From: Thermoleophilia bacterium | GTDB taxonomy: Bacteria; Actinomycetota; Thermoleophilia; Gaiellales; F1-60-MAGs149 | DNA: 64,000 bases | Assembly: GCA_037133755.1 (NCBI GenBank) | Contig: JBAXNN010000010.1 | Coordinates: 10,296 to 74,295, forward strand | Direction of reading: 5' to 3' | Shown here: one piece after another, positions 3,246 to 52,503 of the stretch | Position numbering within the stretch: position 1 is the stretch's first letter | Layout of the letters: each line of letters begins with the position of its first letter | Made by a program: the position numbers and the translations under genes | The notes under the pieces: model-generated | Databases searched by the model: none | What the model was told of the DNA's origin: nothing | What the model saw: the letters and a program-made list of their open reading frames with translations, nothing else

Positions 3246-4328
3246 TCATCGCGCACTCGCGACGGCCTGCGCGAAGGCTCCGTCGATAAGCGCGAGTGGA
3301 TCCACCGGTGCGGCGAGCCAGCCGGCGGCAGTCGCTGCAGCGTCAATCTCTCTGAGGGTCTGGTCGTAGTACTCGCCGCCGGGCAGGAGATCGACGGCAT
3401 TGGCCGGCACGTCGTAGAGCGCGTTGCCCGCAAGGTCGGCGTTGACGTCCTCGACCGCGATATCGCCCCGTGCCGCGATGCCCGTCGCGACCGCATCGGG
3501 ATTATCTCGCTCGAAGCTATAGAGGTCCTGCCACGCTCGAATGAAGGCGAGTACCTGCCCCGGGCGCGAGCGCGCAGTCTCCTCGCGCACCACAAGCACC
3601 TGGGAGAGCAGACCCGGCTCATCGCCGGCAGTTGCGATCGGCACAATCGTCGGATCGGCAGCCTGCACCTCGACGGCCTGCACCTCGGTGTCGACCGCCG
3701 CATCGGCGCTGCCATCGAGCAGCAGCACACCCGGTGCGGTCCCACCCGAGCGGACGAGCTGAAGCTGCGTCACCGGCACGTCGTTGGCGGCCAGGATCCC
3801 GCGCAGTAGGAGCTCGCCGTCGGTGCCCGCCGCGTAAGCGACACGCTTGCCGACAAGGCCGGTCACATCGCCGACGTCAGGACGGGCCAGAATCACCTCG
3901 CCCGAGGTGACCGACGTGAGCAGCAGCACGATCCGCAGCTTGGCATCCCGCGAGGCGAGCGCGAGCGCCTCATCCGACGAGACGACCGCAGCATCGGCCG
4001 CTCCCGAGCGCAGCGCCGCGAGAATGGCGTCGCCGGATGCGGGAGGACCGATGCGCATGCTGAGCCCCTCGCGGCCGACAAAACCGAGCGCGGCGCCTGA
4101 GCGCACGAGGTCGAAGGCGAGCGATGGCTGGCCGGTCAGCCGGAAGATGCCGGGCTCGGCTGGTGTGTCAGCCGGGATCGTCGACGCAGGCACCGTGGCC
4201 GTGAGCGGATCGATCGACGCAGCATCCGTCGACCCGCCGTCCGACGAGCCGCAGGCCGCAACCAGCGCGGCCACGCCGATGCAGGCCATTGCCAGCACGC
4301 CCCGCGTTGCGCTCCTCCCTATGCCCAC
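3246..4328 (-). CDS. ABC-type substrate-binding lipoprotein (NMT1/SsuA/TauA-like)
   Basis: A lipobox LVAAC-G follows a basic n-region if translation starts at the GTG at 4328 (MGIGRSATRGVLAMACIGVAALVAACGSS). The periplasmic-binding-protein-like body is consistent with this family. An alternative ATG at 4289 would leave too short a signal peptide. Confidence 0.6.
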   Translation of the reverse strand: MGIGRSATRGVLAMACIGVAALVAACGSSDGGSTDAASIDPLTATVPASTIPADTPAEPGIFRLTGQPSLAFDLVRSGAALGFVGREGLSMRIGPPASGDAILAALRSGAADAAVVSSDEALALASRDAKLRIVLLLTSVTSGEVILARPDVGDVTGLVGKRVAYAAGTDGELLLRGILAANDVPVTQLQLVRSGGTAPGVLLLDGSADAAVDTEVQAVEVQAADPTIVPIATAGDEPGLLSQVLVVREETARSRPGQVLAFIRAWQDLYSFERDNPDAVATGIAARGDIAVEDVNADLAGNALYDVPANAVDLLPGGEYYDQTLREIDAAATAAGWLAAPVDPLALIDGAFAQAVASAR

Positions 4329-7153: not shown

Positions 7154-8404
7154 ATGAGCGCCACCACGCAGAGCGAGATCGCCACCCGAGGCCGCGCCGC
7201 CGCGCGCGCCATCCGCAGTGCCAGCACCGACGTCCGCGACGCGGCGCTGGCCTCGATCGCCGCTCACCTCGAGGCCGACGCCGCTGCGATCCTCACCGCC
7301 AATGCGCAGGACGTCGCCGCCGCCGTCGCCGACAACACCACTGCGGCACTGATCGATCGACTCACGCTCAACGACGAGCGCCTGGCCGCACTGGCCCAGG
7401 CCGTCCGCGATGTGGCTGCGCTCCCCGATCCCGTCGGCCGCGTGATCGACGATCGCCGCCTGCACAACGGCCTCGAGCTCTCCAAGGTGCGCGTCCCGAT
7501 CGGCCGCGTCCTCGTGGTCTACGAGGCACGCCCCAACGTGACGGTCGACGTCGCCGCGCTGTGCATCAAGTCGGGCAACGTGGCACTGCTGCGTGGCTCG
7601 GCCTCTGCGAAGCACACGAACGCCGCCCTCAGCGCCGCGGTGCGCGGCGGCCTCGCCGATGCGGGCCTGCCCGAGGACATCGTGATCCCGATCGAGGGCT
7701 CCCGTGACGACCTCGGCGAGCTCGTGAGCGACGCCAGTGCCGCCGACATCGTGGTGCCCCGCGGTGGCGAGGCACTCAAGGACTTCCTGCTCGAGAAGAG
7801 CCGCATTCCCGTCCTCGCAGCCGCCGGCGGCATCTGCCACGTCTACCTCGATCGCGATGCGAACGCCGACATGGCCGTCGCGATCACGCTGAACGCCAAG
7901 GTCCACCGCCCCGGCGTGTGCAACGCGGCCGAGACGCTGCTGGTGCACGCCGACCGCACCGACCTGCTCCAGCCGGTGCTCACGGCCCTGCGCGATGCAG
8001 GGGTCGAGCTGCGCGGCGATGAGCGCACACGCGCCGCGATCGACTTCGAGATCAACGAGGCGACAGAGGCCGACTGGGATGCCGAGTATCTCGACCTGAT
8101 CCTCGCCGTGCGCGTGGTCGATGACCTCGACGCCGCCCTCGACCACATCGACCGGCACTCGACGGGCCACTCCGAGGCGATCGTCACCGACTCGCTCGAG
8201 GCGTCGCGCACCTTCACCGACGGCGTCGATTCGGCGTGCGTCTACGTGAACGCCTCGACGCGCTTCACCGACGGCGGCGAATACGGCATGGGCGCCGAGG
8301 TGGGCAACTCGACGGCGCGCCTGCACGTGCGCGGTCCGATCGGGCTCGAGGATCTGACGACGACGAAGTACGTCGTCATCGGCACCGGCCAGACGCGCGC
8401 GTAG
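7154..8404 (+). CDS. proA: Gamma-glutamyl phosphate reductase
   Basis: Aldehyde-dehydrogenase-like ProA signatures are present (VYEARPNVT, catalytic Cys in HRPGVCNAAETLLVH, STGHSEAIVT). I chose the ATG at 7154; the ORF track starts at a TTG at 7145. Confidence 0.9.
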   Translation: MSATTQSEIATRGRAAARAIRSASTDVRDAALASIAAHLEADAAAILTANAQDVAAAVADNTTAALIDRLTLNDERLAALAQAVRDVAALPDPVGRVIDDRRLHNGLELSKVRVPIGRVLVVYEARPNVTVDVAALCIKSGNVALLRGSASAKHTNAALSAAVRGGLADAGLPEDIVIPIEGSRDDLGELVSDASAADIVVPRGGEALKDFLLEKSRIPVLAAAGGICHVYLDRDANADMAVAITLNAKVHRPGVCNAAETLLVHADRTDLLQPVLTALRDAGVELRGDERTRAAIDFEINEATEADWDAEYLDLILAVRVVDDLDAALDHIDRHSTGHSEAIVTDSLEASRTFTDGVDSACVYVNASTRFTDGGEYGMGAEVGNSTARLHVRGPIGLEDLTTTKYVVIGTGQTRA

Positions 8405-32105: not shown

Positions 32106-33506
32106 ATGACCGAGTATCGGATCGAGACGGACAGCATGGGCGAGGTCAAGGTCGCCACGGATCGCTACTGGGGCGCACAGACCGAGCGCTCGATCGACAA
32201 CTTTCAGATCGGCCGCGACACCTATCAGTGGGACCGCCCGATCATCCGCGCCCTCGGCGTCCTCAAGAAGTCGGCTGCCCGCGCGAACAAGGATCTCGGC
32301 CAGCTGCCGCCCGACGTCGCCGACATGGTGATCGCCGCCGCCGACGAGGTCATCTCGGGCCAGCTTGACGACCACTTCCCGCTCGTCGTCTGGCAGACCG
32401 GCTCCGGTACGCAGTCGAACATGAACGTCAACGAGGTGATCTCGAACCGCGCGATCGAGCAGGCCGGCGGTGACATGGGGTCGAAGACGCCCGTCCATCC
32501 CAACGATCACGTCAACCGCGGCCAGTCGTCGAACGACACGTTCCCGACCGCGATGCACATCGCCGCCGTCGAGGTCCTCGAGAACGACCTGCTGCCGAAC
32601 GTCAAGATCCTCCGCGACACGCTCGATGCGAAGGCGAAGGAGTTCGCCGACGTCGTCAAGATCGGCCGCACGCACCTGCAGGACGCCACGCCGATCACGC
32701 TCGGCCAGGAGATCTCCGCCTGGGTCGCCCAGATCGACGACGCCGTCGCGCAGGTGCGCCACGCGATCACCGGTCTGCTTGAGCTCGCCATCGGCGGCAC
32801 CGCCGTCGGCACGGGTCTCAACGCACATCCGGAGTTCGGCGATCTGGCCGCGAAGTACATGGCCGAGGAGACGGGCCACGCCTTCTACTCCGCCGAGAAC
32901 AAGTTCAAGGCCCTCGCCTCGCATGACGCGATGGTCAACGCCTCGGCAGCCGAGCGCACGCTGGCCGGCGCGCTGATGAAGATGGCGAACGACGTCCGCC
33001 GTCTGGCCTCCGGTCCCCGCGCCGGCATCGGCGAGATCGAGATCCCGGAGAACGAGCCGGGCTCGTCGATCATGCCGGGCAAGGTCAATCCGACGCAGTG
33101 CGAGGCGCTCACGATGGTCTGCGTGCAGGTCTTCGGCAACGACGCCGCCGTCGCCTTCGGCGGCACGCAGGGCGACTACCAGCTGAACGTCTACAAGCCG
33201 GTGATGGTCTGGAACGTGATCGAGTCGGCCGAGCTGCTCGGCCAGGCGTGCAAGTCGTTCAACGACCGCTGCGCCGTCGGTATCGAGCCCAACAACGAGA
33301 CGCTCGAGCGCAATCTCAACGCCTCGCTCATGCTCGTCACGGCGCTCAACAAGCACATCGGCTACGACAACGCCGCCAAGATCGCCAAGAAGGCGCATCA
33401 CGAGGGCACGACGCTGATCGAGGCCGCCACGGCCCTCGAGCTGCTGACGCCCGAGCAGTACGCCGAGTGGGTCGTCCCGGTGGACATGACCCGCCCGAGC
33501 GCCTGA
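32106..33506 (+). CDS. fumC: Class II fumarate hydratase
   Basis: Starts at ATG 32106 ([16 protein letters not shown]). The signature [16 protein letters not shown] is present, and the protein is FumC-like over its full length. Confidence 0.95.
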
Positions 33507-33516
33507 CGGATCAGAT

Positions 33517-33556
33517 CCCGCCCGCGCGCCTGATCGAGGTCAGGCGCGCGGGCGGG
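33517..33556 (+). terminator. fumC terminator hairpin (17-bp perfect stem, 6-nt loop, no U-tract)
   Basis: CCCGCCCGCGCGCCTGA (33517-33533) pairs with TCAGGCGCGCGGGCGGG (33540-33556). It begins 10 nt after the fumC stop codon. Confidence 0.6.
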
Positions 33557-33572: not shown

Positions 33573-33685
33573 GGATGCTCCAAAGGGGTCAGACCCTTTT
33601 GGAGCACGTCCGCAGACCCCGGCGCTTCTCCAGCGATACCCGCGGCGGTCATGCTCCAAAAGGGTCTGACCCCTTTGGAGCATCC
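33573..33685. repeat. Double-palindrome repeat element, copy 1
   Basis: Inverted 31-mers lie at 33576-33606 and 33652-33682 and are exact reverse complements. The 25-nt core TCCAAAGGGGTCAGACCCTTTTGGA is shared with copies at 41.2 kb and 51.5 kb. Confidence 0.85.
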
Positions 33686-33755
33686 GGGCTGGATCCAGCC
33701 CGAACCTGCGACGATCGTCGGCCTCACGACGAACGACACGGGGATCACCCGTCGG

Positions 33756-35414
33756 TCAGTCGTCTGACGCGAAGACCCCCACCGCTCCCGCGCCAATGAG
33801 CACCGCACCACCGACGACCAGCGCCGCGGGCAGCGCCCCGGTCCCGGCCGCGCCGATCAGCGTCGCCAGATCGGCCCCGCGCAGCAGGAAGATCAGGAGT
33901 CCCATTACCGCGACGGGCCCGAGGGCCCAGGCGACCCGCGGCAGCGGCTCGACCGGGCGCGGCAGCAGCGTCCATAGCCAGAGCGCGGGCGCGGCGATCA
34001 GCACCGAGGCGGGGCTCCCGGCCAGCAGCAACGCGGCGGCGACCAGGCCGATGGTGGGGGCGGCAAGCAGCGGCATCGCCGCCGTGCGACGGCGTACGAG
34101 CAGGTAGCCAGCAAGGGCGAAGACCACCAGTGCGGCAAGCACGACGAGCGCGATCGTCAGCAGTCCGGCACGCGGCCAGCCGGAGCCAGGCGGGGTGTCG
34201 ATGCCGCCGGCCAGATTGGCGGCACGCGCGATCAGTACCGCGGCGATGCCAGGTACGGCACCGACCACGGCGACCGTGAGGGCGGCGCTCCAGCCGGAAC
34301 GGGACGGGCTGCCGCCCTGCAGAAGTCGACGCCCGACGGCGTACAGCGGGCCGATCAGCAAGGCGATCGCCAGCAGCGCGATCGCCTTGCCGGGAATCAC
34401 GCGGCCCGAGACGGCGATGTACGCACCGCTCGGTGGCGCCGGGCGCGGCTCCGCGTCGAGGCGCACCAGCAGCGTGCCAATCGCCGAGCCAACAGCGCCG
34501 AGTCGGGCGTCGCTGATCGCCTCCGTCCCCACACCGCCGCCGCCGCTGCCGAGCTGAATCGCCGCGACTCCCGCATCGAGGAACGGCACCTGCGCGCCCG
34601 ACGGCTCGACCGGTGCGATCAGATCGAGCACCTGCAGCACCGGATTCTCCGGTGCCGCCGAACCCGCATTCTGCTGCGTCTGCAGCGACTCCTCGAGGCC
34701 CTTCAACAGGACCTCTGGCGTGCGTACGCCGCCGGTGCCGGCAAAGAGGATCGGCAGGGTGCCCGTCGGACCACCGATCGCATTGAGCGAGACCACCGCG
34801 ACCGGGCGCACGCCATCGGCACGCAGTGATGCGAGCAAGTGCTCGTTGCCGGCCTGCCCGACGGTACCGCCATCGGTTGAGGCGAGTACGAGAGCACGGG
34901 AGCGCTCCACGCCCGAGAGGTCGCGGGCGAGCTCGACCAACGCCGCCGTCCCCGTCGCGTTGTCGTCGAGACCCGGCCCCGGTGAGACGTCGTCGCGGTT
35001 CGCGATCAGCACGATCGCCTCGTCCGACGACCCCTGCTCGACGACCCAGAGGTTCTCCATCTTGACATCGCTGCCCGAGGCTCCGGGCGCCCGGAACGCG
35101 GCGCGGTGCACGGGCTCGCCACTCGCCTCCGCCAGCGACCCCGCAATCTGGTCAGCGGCCTGCTGCGCCGTCACCGTCCCGGGGGCGCGATCCGGGGTGC
35201 GCTCGGCGAGCCTGCGGGCGTACGCCGCCGCCAGCGGCCCGTCGAAACTCGGGGCCACGGCGATGGTGGCGGACGGTCCGAGCGGCGTGCGAACGCTGAT
35301 CAGCAGGATCACGAGAGCGATCAACGGCGGTGCGATGAAGGCAATGCGCAGCGCGCGCCCAGCACGATCGCGGGGCCGTGCAGCCGTTTGCATGCTGGCG
35401 CGCTGGCGGTCCAC
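33756..35414 (-). CDS. M28-peptidase-like domain (metal ligands apparently degenerate) fused to a polytopic membrane domain
   Basis: GLDDNATGTAALVELARDL is the M28 hallmark. However, the upstream HxD is NRDD and the Glu-Glu box is STDGG. The C-terminal ~230 aa form about six hydrophobic helices. Confidence 0.55.
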   Translation of the reverse strand: MDRQRASMQTAARPRDRAGRALRIAFIAPPLIALVILLISVRTPLGPSATIAVAPSFDGPLAAAYARRLAERTPDRAPGTVTAQQAADQIAGSLAEASGEPVHRAAFRAPGASGSDVKMENLWVVEQGSSDEAIVLIANRDDVSPGPGLDDNATGTAALVELARDLSGVERSRALVLASTDGGTVGQAGNEHLLASLRADGVRPVAVVSLNAIGGPTGTLPILFAGTGGVRTPEVLLKGLEESLQTQQNAGSAAPENPVLQVLDLIAPVEPSGAQVPFLDAGVAAIQLGSGGGGVGTEAISDARLGAVGSAIGTLLVRLDAEPRPAPPSGAYIAVSGRVIPGKAIALLAIALLIGPLYAVGRRLLQGGSPSRSGWSAALTVAVVGAVPGIAAVLIARAANLAGGIDTPPGSGWPRAGLLTIALVVLAALVVFALAGYLLVRRRTAAMPLLAAPTIGLVAAALLLAGSPASVLIAAPALWLWTLLPRPVEPLPRVAWALGPVAVMGLLIFLLRGADLATLIGAAGTGALPAALVVGGAVLIGAGAVGVFASDD

Positions 35415-40481: not shown

Positions 40482-41194
40482 TCGGCGCGATCTCGCTGTC
40501 GGGCCTCGGCCTGATGACGGCGTTCGCAGCGGGATTCATCTCGTTCCTCTCTCCCTGCGTGTGGCCGCTCGTGCCCGCGTACCTCTCCTACGTCTCCGGC
40601 GTGCCCTACGAGGAGCTCGGCTCCAACACGCGGCGCGTCGTGCTGACCACGCTGGCCTTCGTCGGCGGCTTCACCGTCGTGTTCGCGCTGTACGGCGTGA
40701 GCGTCGGCTACCTCGGCTCGCTCGTCGCCGATTACCGCCGCACGATCGAGATCATCGGCGGCCTGCTGGTGATCCTGATGGGCCTGGCGCTGCTCGGTTT
40801 CGCACAGCGCCTGGTCGGGCGCGAGGCGCGCGTGGGCCTCCCCGCCCGCCCGACGACGTTCGTCGGCGCCGGCGTGGCGGGCGTCGTGTTCGCCGTCGGC
40901 TGGACGCCGTGCATCGGCCCGGTGCTCACCTCGATCCTGCTCTACGCCGCCACGCAGGGCTCGGCCGGCGGCTCGGTGCTCCTGCTCGCCTACGGCATTG
41001 GCCTCGGCGTGCCGTTTCTCCTGTCCGGCCTGCTCGCGTCGTGGCTGCTCGAACGCACCGGCGCGTACCGCAAGTACGGCGCGTGGGTCAACCGCATCGC
41101 CGGCGTGATCATGATCATCGTCGGCGTCCTGCTCGCGACCGGGCAGCTGACGCAGATCACGCAGCAGCTCAGCGGCTACGGCCTGATCGTCTAG
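40478..41194 (+). CDS. ccdA: Cytochrome c biogenesis thiol-transfer protein CcdA (DsbD-core family)
   Basis: Six TM helices with conserved cysteines in FLSPCVWPLVP and GWTPCIGP. There is a 4-nt overlap with the tlpA-like gene. Confidence 0.85.
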   Translation: MIGAISLSGLGLMTAFAAGFISFLSPCVWPLVPAYLSYVSGVPYEELGSNTRRVVLTTLAFVGGFTVVFALYGVSVGYLGSLVADYRRTIEIIGGLLVILMGLALLGFAQRLVGREARVGLPARPTTFVGAGVAGVVFAVGWTPCIGPVLTSILLYAATQGSAGGSVLLLAYGIGLGVPFLLSGLLASWLLERTGAYRKYGAWVNRIAGVIMIIVGVLLATGQLTQITQQLSGYGLIV

Positions 41195-41201
41195 GCGCGA
41201 G

Positions 41202-41309
41202 ATGCTCCAAAGGGGTCAGACCCTTTTGGAGCATGCCCGCGAGTGACATGTCGCATGGCAATTGGCATGGTCGCGCATGTTCCAAAAGGGTCTGACCCCT
41301 TTGGAGCAT
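41202..41309. repeat. Double-palindrome repeat element, copy 2
   Basis: Inverted 31-mers lie at 41203-41233 and 41278-41308 with one G-T mismatch. The spacer is 44 nt. The element starts 7 nt after the ccdA stop codon. Confidence 0.85.
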
Positions 41310-51494: not shown

Positions 51495-51607
51495 CCGGTC
51501 GATAGTCCAAAGGGGTCAGACCCTTTTGGAGCATGTGCGACCTTCAGCGATGCTTCGCTGCCACGGCATGATCCAAAAGGGTCTGACCCCTTTGGACTAT
51601 CGACCGG
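51495..51607. repeat. Double-palindrome repeat element, copy 3 (36-bp perfect arms)
   Basis: 51495-51530 is the exact reverse complement of 51572-51607. The same 25-nt core is present. The element ends 3 nt from the rsrA stop codon. Confidence 0.85.
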
Positions 51608-51610
51608 CGA

Positions 51611-51862
51611 TTACTCGCAGTCGCAGTCGTCGCAGATGCGACGGAGCTCGGCGCGCAGCCCCTCAGGGCACGGCTCGTCGCAGGCCTTGCGCATGACGGT
51701 GCGCACGCCGACCTCGAGGCCGTAGCACTTGGCGCAGCACGGGCACACGGCGAGGTGCGCGTCGACGACGGTGACCTCTTCGGCCACGAGCGTGCCGTCG
51801 ACGTACTCCTGCACGCAGCGCTGCGCGTGGAGACAGGCCTCAGAGCGAACGTGGGTGCTCAT
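51611..51862 (-). CDS. rsrA: Zinc-binding anti-sigma factor (ZAS; RsrA-like)
   Basis: The HxxxCxxC motif lies in HLAVCPCC, followed by an RsrA-like CAKCYGLEVGVRTVMRKAC. There are 11 Cys in 83 aa. The ATG overlaps the sigma-factor stop codon. Confidence 0.8.
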   Translation of the reverse strand: MSTHVRSEACLHAQRCVQEYVDGTLVAEEVTVVDAHLAVCPCCAKCYGLEVGVRTVMRKACDEPCPEGLRAELRRICDDCDCE

Positions 51863-52503
51863 GCGGCCTCCGGGTCGGTGTGGTCGGCTAGCGCCTTCTT
51901 GAGAACGCGACGACCGCGGTGCAGGCGACTCATGACCGTGCCGACGGGAATCTCCAGGACGTCGGCGGCCTCCTGATAGGAGAGATCGCCAAGGTCGACG
52001 AGCACGACGACCTCGCGGAACGGCAGTGCGAGCTCTCCCAGCGCGTCGAGCACGGGACCGGGCGACAGGCGCTCGATCAGCCGGTCGACGTCGGGTGCGG
52101 CCGGGCCGTTGAGACGGTCGTACAGGTAGTAGTCGTCGGCCTCGAGCCCGAGCTGCTCGGGCTGGCGCTGCTGCTTGCGGGCGTTATCGATCGCGAGGTT
52201 GTGGACGATGCGCAGCAGCCACGCGCGCAGGTTGGTACCCGGCTCGTACTGCTTCCACGAGCGGAAGGCACGGGTGTACGCCTCCTGCATCAGGTCCTCG
52301 GCGGCCTGGGGATCGCGCGTCAGCCGGCGCGCCACGCGCCAGACGTCGTCGGCTAGCGCCAGCGCCTGCTCATCGAAGACCAGCCGCGCGGGATCGGCCG
52401 CCGACGCGTCGGTGGTCTGGGCGGTCTCGTCGGCCACGTTGCGAGCGTACCACCCAGCGGTGGCCGTGCCCGAGGGACCCGTGATGGCGGCAACTGCCTG
52501 CAT
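51859..52503 (-). CDS. sigR: ECF sigma factor, SigR/SigH-like
   Basis: Region 2 reads EDLMQEAYTRAFRSW...NLRAWLLRIVHN, and region 4 reads LSYQEAADVLEIPVGTVMSRLHRGR. A GGAAT-N18-GTT promoter lies directly upstream. Confidence 0.85.
   Translation of the reverse strand: MQAVAAITGPSGTATAGWYARNVADETAQTTDASAADPARLVFDEQALALADDVWRVARRLTRDPQAAEDLMQEAYTRAFRSWKQYEPGTNLRAWLLRIVHNLAIDNARKQQRQPEQLGLEADDYYLYDRLNGPAAPDVDRLIERLSPGPVLDALGELALPFREVVVLVDLGDLSYQEAADVLEIPVGTVMSRLHRGRRVLKKALADHTDPEAA

Follow-up and report, generated by a model that had tools for sequence, protein, structure and literature searches.

REPINs and RAYTs have been described in P. fluorescens SBW25 and E. coli (PMC3116915, PMC2817692; see also PMC5581495), and a structure of TnpA-REP is available (4ER8, PMC3479197). 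In Pseudomonas, the singlet REPs have been proposed to be decay products of REPIN doublets (PMC3116915). Nearly all REPIN-RAYT systems characterised so far are those of Proteobacteria. The TIRYTs are RAYT-like genes flanked by inverted repeats, many of which share the motif GGGGWSAS (Di Nocera et al. 2013, PMC3733652), and some of their repeat families are self-complementary and occur as dimers (PMC3733652). Quentin et al. (2018, PMC6006769) placed most TIRYTs in TnpA-REP subclass 2.1, whose members have a C-terminal HTH_23, HTH_28 or Bac_DnaA_C domain and which about 15% of strains possess. In the literature searched, this HTH-bearing TIRYT/subclass 2.1 branch was named in these two papers only (PMC3733652 and PMC6006769), the latter reporting that REP-like sequences were not found beside the subclass 2.1 genes.

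The DNA analysed here, a stretch of 64,000 nucleotides that we refer to as the window, comes from a Thermoleophilia/Gaiellales-like freshwater actinobacterium, a member of a poorly studied lineage, and it carries three loci that are REPINs, a kind of element that is already known. An initial annotation made from the sequence had read them as REP/MITE-like, and this reading was supported and can be sharpened to REPIN, given the doublet structure and the RAYT-type gene found in relatives. We consider it highly probable that each locus is a non-autonomous REPIN that depends on a RAYT-type (TIRYT/TnpA-REP subclass 2.1-like) Y1 HUH transposase encoded elsewhere in the genome. The observed basis of this explanation consists of the architecture of the loci, their long hairpin, their fixed polarity, the repeat-bracketed transposase gene in relatives with its intact HUH and Tyr residues, and the turnover of copies. 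The family belongs to the already described RAYT/TIRYT world (PMC3733652, PMC6006769), and it represents a clean case, in uncultured freshwater Actinomycetota, of the HTH-bearing branch having a true population of REPINs.

As in the REPINs of SBW25 and E. coli, two imperfectly palindromic REPs stand in inverted orientation around a less conserved spacer and form a long hairpin, the elements are extragenic and lie near the 3′ ends of genes, singlets resembling decay products occur, and a Y1 HUH gene flanked by its own REPs (a REPtron) is found in a conserved chromosomal neighbourhood. Unlike those REPINs, the elements described here have no 5′ GTAG tag, the conserved element being instead the apical GGGGTCAG core; an HTH is present at the C terminus of the transposase; the host is an actinobacterium and not a proteobacterium; and the spacers are far more variable between copies. 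The IS200/IS605 elements (IS608, ISDra2 and miniatures) share with this system the HUH-Y1 fold, the probable need for imperfect single-stranded DNA hairpins, and a strand-specific asymmetry of the hairpin, which here consists of one G-T position and a central A. In contrast, the ends of IS200/IS605 elements are two hairpins in direct orientation, and the elements carry their own gene and multiply as a unit, whereas here the hairpins are inverted and the gene is apparently fixed in a conserved neighbourhood.

Inverted doublets and their long hairpin

The features of the window considered below are the following.

33573 to 33685, no strand assigned: REPIN copy 1, with a REP at 33576-33606, a 45-nt spacer and a REP at 33652-33682
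41202 to 41309, no strand assigned: REPIN copy 2, with a REP at 41203-41233, a 44-nt spacer and a REP at 41278-41308
51495 to 51607, no strand assigned: REPIN copy 3, with a REP at 51503-51533, a 35-nt spacer and a REP at 51569-51599
33517 to 33556, plus strand: stem-loop of 17 bp, perfect, just 3′ of fumC, outside the repeat family
33686 to 33701, no strand assigned: palindrome GGGCTGGATCCAGCCC, 16 nt, perfect, abutting copy 1, outside the repeat family

The initial annotation had located three loci that share a 25-nt core, identical in six copies, and a pattern search found the loci and the cores exactly there. When up to three mismatches were allowed, the core was still matched exactly six times, in inverted pairs at 33579/33655, 41206/41281 and 51506/51572, and the further matches in the window were near-palindromic reverse readings of those six sites only; the control, 100 dinucleotide-preserving shuffles, produced no matches. 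The REP positions are intergenic, and the 64 kb contain six REPs where none would be expected. Every 31-mer is self-complementary, as had been claimed: the repeat finder reported each as a 15+15 near-palindrome with one G-T/A-C position. The lengths of 45, 44 and 35 nt given for the spacers between the 31-mers also agree with our analysis. The inverted pairing at copy 1 was confirmed, but its length of 34 bp was not, since the repeat finder returned arms of 41 nt that are 95% complementary (33573-33613 and 33645-33685). The corresponding arms are 38 nt long and 95% complementary in copy 2 (41202-41239 and 41272-41309), and 41 nt long and 98% complementary in copy 3 (51495-51535 and 51567-51607). 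In copy 1, GGGGTCAG is found inward at 33585-33592 and its complement, CTGACCCC, at 33666-33673. The outer arms of copy 3 (CCGGTCGATAGT and ACTATCGACCGG) are off the family consensus, yet they pair perfectly with each other. The spacers of the three window copies are mostly unrelated to one another, and they are looser than those of the classic Pseudomonas REPINs.

All three copies had been described as lying just 3′ of a stop codon, and the gene context agrees, because copies 2 and 3 lie 7 nt and 3 nt from stops and copy 1 is past the stop of fumC. Copy 1 occupies, as annotated, a 249-nt gap between two convergent genes, fumC (Lyase_1 and FumaraseC_C; stop ending at 33506) and a gene for an M28 peptidase (stop at 33756). 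Copy 2 begins 7 nt past the stop of a DsbD_TM/CcdA-like gene (ending at 41194), with 76 nt between it and the stop of a NUDIX gene in convergent orientation. Both neighbours of copy 3 are on the minus strand: a zf-HC2 anti-sigma gene, whose stop (51611) is 3 nt from the end of the copy, and the next gene, for a 3-hydroxyacyl-CoA dehydrogenase (3HCDH), whose start is 65 nt downstream of the copy. The genes beside the copies belong to unrelated housekeeping families. The anti-sigma gene forms part of an ECF sigma factor/zf-HC2 anti-sigma pair that spans 51611-52503, and copy 3 is directly downstream of this pair, in the short gap before the 3HCDH gene.

Two other structures had been noted around copy 1. 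The 17-bp stem at 33517-33556, which had been proposed as the fumC terminator, is present, and it is mostly kept in L049, the orthologous region of a related genome; the consensus terminator scan, however, made no call on it, and it has no T-run. It may serve fumC as a 3′ hairpin of its own. The second structure, the palindrome of 16 nt (33686-33701), is present as well; it is absent from the orthologous L049 region, where the sequence is unrelated.

Folded as single-stranded DNA, copies 1, 2 and 3 reached −53.8, −49.3 and −57.7 kcal/mol, with z-scores of −13.1, −12.2 and −15.0 relative to shuffled sequences, and a lone 31-mer hairpin reached about −13 kcal/mol. The initial annotation had proposed that the locus folds either as two small hairpins or as one long hairpin; folds, pairing and covariation favoured the long form, and the small forms were less supported. 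To assess covariation, the paired arms of 28 distinct inverted doublets from the lineage of the window were aligned. The model with one long hairpin had 91.5% of the cells paired, 26 pairs changed on both sides and a covariation score of 0.255, compared with 80.4%, 16 pairs and a score of 0.168 for the model with two small hairpins, counts that overstate the independent support because the copies of a family share descent. The outermost arm positions are paired in the long form only. The copy 1 orthologue in L049 has two adjacent bases changed in each outer arm (GCTCC/GGAGC to GTGCC/GGCAC), a compensatory change that keeps the long hairpin and disrupts the small ones. The unit is the whole doublet (REPIN) and not the 31-mer, and the long hairpin is better supported than the small ones.

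The polarity of the doublets was fixed. In all 28, the left REP is of the form AAAGGGGTC-A-GACCCTTTT (...GGGGTC-A-GACCC...) and the right REP is its complement; the reverse arrangement did not occur (0 of 28). This arrangement results in one inward GGGGTCAG per REP, and the match to GGGGWSAS is likewise found exactly once inward in each REP, since that motif allows only A at position 7. Neither a GTAG nor a CGTC tetranucleotide was found at the ends of the palindromes, which distinguishes the family from the classic proteobacterial ones (PMC3733652), and the aligned arms begin with a G-A-T-G-like foot. Membership in an Rfam RNA family was considered and rejected: no family was detected at the gathering threshold anywhere in the window, in accordance with the initial annotation, which had recognised none, and a permissive scan of the copy 1 locus returned only generic hairpin matches to miRNA models, below threshold.

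A RAYT-type transposase gene in related genomes

The ORFs of the window and of the listed loci were searched with RAYT/IS200-like probes and a 104-sequence HMM. Neither the probes nor the HMM detected a RAYT gene in the 64-kb window, which is consistent with the earlier remark that no transposase gene accompanies the element, and none was detected beside the copies from other phyla in the listed loci sampled. The single strong match was an ORF located at 558-1355 on the minus strand of L054, a locus from a MAG that is about 91% identical to the window at the nucleotide level and is the closest among the matches listed. The predicted protein matched Pfam Y1_Tnp with 36.8 bits (cut-off 23), has a C-terminal HTH_23/HTH_17, and matched NCBIfam REP_Tyr_transpos with 73.6 bits (E 1.5e-20), slightly below the curated cut-off of 80. 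Among PDB structures, 4ER8 (TnpA-REP of E. coli) matched it best, and the alignment brings together the HUH histidines and the catalytic Tyr of the two proteins. A search of protein databases returned a clade of homologues that extends from 100% down to about 44% identity, several of which are named RayT by their sources, and the motifs N-H-x-H and R-Y-x-x-x-N-P-V are invariant across this clade.

The L054 gene is bracketed by a single perfect-palindrome REP at its stop and by a slightly degenerate inverted doublet just upstream. The repeat-bracketed gene is the REPtron arrangement of RAYT-REP systems. The initial annotation had named a RAYT/IS200-like gene elsewhere as something to look for, and such a gene was found in the closest relative and, with the same repeats flanking it, in all its orthologues. 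In every one of these orthologues (L102-L112; 82, 58, 54, 50 and 44% identity) the flanking doublets or singles contain the GGGGTCWGACCCC core, and the arms around it are lineage-specific (for example, GGATGTCACAAA...; GAGATTTCGTGTT... with ...TTTACGAAACC; CTGGACAAA...). The genes around the orthologues (aconitase-like, Asp/Glu racemase [Asp_Glu_race], SDR and copper amine oxidase) are also conserved, and the persistence of this neighbourhood from 100% to 44% identity argues for vertical descent of the RAYT gene. The transposase is found in a conserved neighbourhood, and its hairpin partners combine an invariant 13-nt tip with stems that change from lineage to lineage, a combination that makes the rule of protein-DNA recognition directly testable.

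Some features of the contigs that carry the gene were recorded along the way. At L102:3760-3795 (also in L103 and L104) a REP extends into the end of the RAYT reading frame, and the last residues of the protein, ...KGSDPFVT, are encoded by the repeat. Many of the contigs that contain the RAYT gene (P0001-P0017) are merely 0.9-2 kb long, and motif matches are often located within about 60 nt of a contig end (e.g., L001, L002, L052 and L059). RAYT contigs of about 1 kb and motif matches at contig ends indicate that the repeats break short-read metagenome assemblies.

The system resembles TIRYT/subclass 2.1 in that the protein has a Y1 core with the catalytic Tyr and a C-terminal HTH_23-type domain, and in that GGGGTCAG, which is present in all flanking repeats and in all window REPs, fits GGGGWSAS, the motif given both for the inverted repeats of TIRYT genes (PMC3733652) and for the HTH-bearing subclass 2.1 (PMC6006769). 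As with the TIRYTs, there are self-complementary repeat families and dimers. On the basis of its domains and the flanking motif, the transposase can provisionally be classified as TIRYT/subclass 2.1-like. A distant homologue from a Ramlibacter MAG (L114:74-914, 28% identity) has the plain TIRtron form, with flanking 24-nt TIRs that contain the same 8-mer, GGGGTCAG, and the repeats flanking another distant homologue (L113:1380-2220, 38% identity) contain GGTGTCAG. Unlike the subclass 2.1 genes as described (PMC6006769), this one lies between true hairpin REPs and doublets, which are also dispersed genome-wide.

The link between the window copies and a transposase is inferred from the genes of the relatives, and mobility and mechanism can be proposed by analogy with the IS200/IS605 TnpA and the E. 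coli TnpA-REP. According to this proposal, the transposase would be the product of a single-copy gene and would act in trans on the doublets. The element would fold once its DNA is single-stranded, as it can be on the template of the lagging strand, and the transposase would recognise the hairpin and its GGGGTCAG-containing tip. The strand would then be cut and rejoined through a 5′-phosphotyrosine link, and the doublet would be excised or copied. Doublets could later become single REPs by deletion between short direct repeats of the palindromic core.

Turnover of copies and rival explanations

The same site was found in different states in related genomes. At the site of copy 3, the window and L033 both have a doublet and L095 has one REP only; the difference is an indel of 66 nt with TTTGGA as a direct repeat at its boundaries. 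The doublet of L101 is matched by a single REP in L035, and that of L019 by an empty site in L054. A doublet in L107 corresponds to a perfect solo palindrome in L106; the difference is a clean 68-nt indel with identical flanks, and both encode an identical transposase. To judge from these alignments, the single REPs look like decay products of doublets. The doublet/single indels are explained equally well by replication slippage between short direct repeats, which is possible because the palindromic core creates such repeats. A transposase nick at the centre of the core was considered as the origin of the singlets and rejected: it fits the L106/L107 indel, but the L095 single breaks at TTTGGA, outside the core, and slippage is the simpler explanation. 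Neither a transposition event nor a cleavage or target site was observed in the loci compared.

Sites may also be occupied by doublets of another type. L132, the only close relative returned by a metagenome scan with the CcdA-like protein, has at the site orthologous to that of copy 2 a doublet with the same core and other arms. Doublets with different arms and unalignable spacers at the same site were observed when the window (41202-41309) was compared with L132 (1930-2055) and when L005 (3056-3157) was compared with L013 (5446-5544; also L027), and at one orthologous intergenic site the arms in L101 (5711-5812) and in L035 (205-240) are each of the type proper to that genome. In all three of these cases, genomes that differ in arm type had the same site occupied. 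The finding of distinct arm types and unalignable spacers at one site suggests replacement or repeated targeting rather than simple inheritance. These genomes provide natural material for the study of repeat-population turnover and of the apparent re-use of sites. A different rearrangement was seen at L046:6423-6525, where there is a direct tandem duplication of REP plus spacer (68-nt unit, copies identical) instead of an inverted doublet.

Proximity to stop codons is the main feature of an explanation in which the doublets are primarily host RNA elements of 3′ ends (terminators or mRNA stabilisers) that are under selection, are not mobile and involve no transposase. A stop codon is found no more than about 100 nt from all the window copies and from most of the related ones, the genes on either side being convergent or co-directional, the three long hairpins fold as RNA at −82 to −93 kcal/mol, and three orthologous sites are occupied in diverged genomes. 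We nevertheless regard this explanation as unlikely. The stems are not followed by a T/U run and the consensus terminator scan was negative at all three loci, so intrinsic terminators were rejected; the differing arm types and unalignable spacers at one site look like replacement and not like conservation; filled/empty and doublet/single polymorphisms occur; and there is a dedicated transposase gene bracketed by the same repeats. An RNA role is compatible with the REPIN reading if it is a secondary use. Since the copies lie just past stop codons, they would be transcribed into very stable 3′ hairpins, which may secondarily protect or end transcripts.

The size of the elements (about 110 nt), their long terminal inverted repeats and their lack of coding capacity would suit a classical MITE, moved in a cut-and-paste manner by an IS transposase of the DDE type for which these repeats would be the recognition sites. 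This is very improbable, because there are no target-site duplications at the copies, an IS with matching ends is absent from the window and from about 100 listed related loci, and the only gene consistently bracketed by the repeats is that of the Y1 HUH transposase. We give even less credence to the palindromes being duplex binding sites for a dimeric regulator or nucleoid protein that have spread by selection for binding. Such a function could be read from the 13-bp GGGGTCWGACCCC, a perfect dyad present in many phyla, and from the HTH of the associated protein, but the sites are downstream of genes and not in promoters, the complementarity between REPs covers 38-41 nt, covaries and goes far beyond a protein footprint, and the flanking genes are of unrelated housekeeping families, as noted above.

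Distribution of the core

The motif CCAAARGGGTCWGACCCYTTTGG was scanned in bacteria and archaea, with one genome per species, and at least 101 stretches were returned. The repeat that the initial annotation had described as a three-copy family is therefore real, but it is not restricted to three copies or to one genome; a search of other genomes had been suggested there, and the core is present in relatives and in further phyla. Window-like inverted doublets were found in at least four MAGs of Gaiellales/Actinomycetota (JAPLCF01, CAINDT01, JBILWG01 and JBPCSK01), and the first two are about 86-93% identical to the window in nucleotide sequence over orthologous stretches. Among the matches listed, the core also occurs as multi-copy hairpins in other groups (Eubacterium, Clostridium, Coprococcus, Olsenella, Planctomycetota, Brocadiaceae, Nitrospira and Acidimicrobiales), each with a different lower stem. 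A relaxed pattern indicated that the common part is GGGGTCWGACCCC, 13 nt, at the tip of otherwise differing stems. The fit of the core to the TIRYT/subclass 2.1 motif probably explains why the same core is found in many phyla.

Clustering of the ORFs over about 100 listed loci identified only housekeeping paralogues as shared neighbours (ABC exporters, histidine kinases, aminotransferases and sigma factors), and a co-located effector in the other phyla is thus unsupported. In the literature, the sole match to the core sequence was an unrelated one from human genetics, and searches for RAYT in Actinobacteria returned spurious word matches only.

A broader hypothesis, which we put forward tentatively and think has a small chance of being correct, is that the GGGGTCWGACCCC tip is the shared recognition site of one very widespread HTH-Y1 branch that would have seeded independent REP/REPIN-like populations in many phyla, and that the elements also home preferentially into existing copies of their own core. 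Homing would explain that sites stay occupied while arms and spacers are replaced, as in the three comparisons out of three described above, and also that perfect-palindrome solo cores are found exactly where relatives have doublets. On the practical side, these repeats should be masked before small RNAs or terminators are called.

Other hairpin families were also recorded. The low-GC rumen MAG Eubacterium sp. RUI101 (JAILGP01; among L004-L097) has dozens of AATTTGCCAAAGGGGTCWGACCCYTTTGGTAAATT hairpins (e.g., L042:1137-1209, L044:2449-2522 and L097:1278-1351), often in direct and not inverted pairs whose members are about 27 nt apart, the conserved spacer including the palindrome-like AATTGTRCRCAATT; the sampled 8-kb blocks showed no RAYT gene. 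Short AAAAGGGGTCWGACCCCTTTT hairpins are present in 17 stretches from IMG/VR contigs (L115-L131), some of which have several copies (e.g., L117:2061-2106, 3860-3912 and 8050-8066; L127:3464-3496). None of these 17 stretches has a RAYT-like ORF, and one of the contigs is labelled as a giant-virus MAG. The viral-contig hairpins may be terminators, repeats derived from a host, or host DNA that was mis-binned. A second hairpin family, with the same tip and another stem, AGGTTCGGTTTGGGGTCTGACCCCAAACCGAACCT, is found alongside the main family in two related MAGs (L085:1219-1253 and L089:5896-5930).
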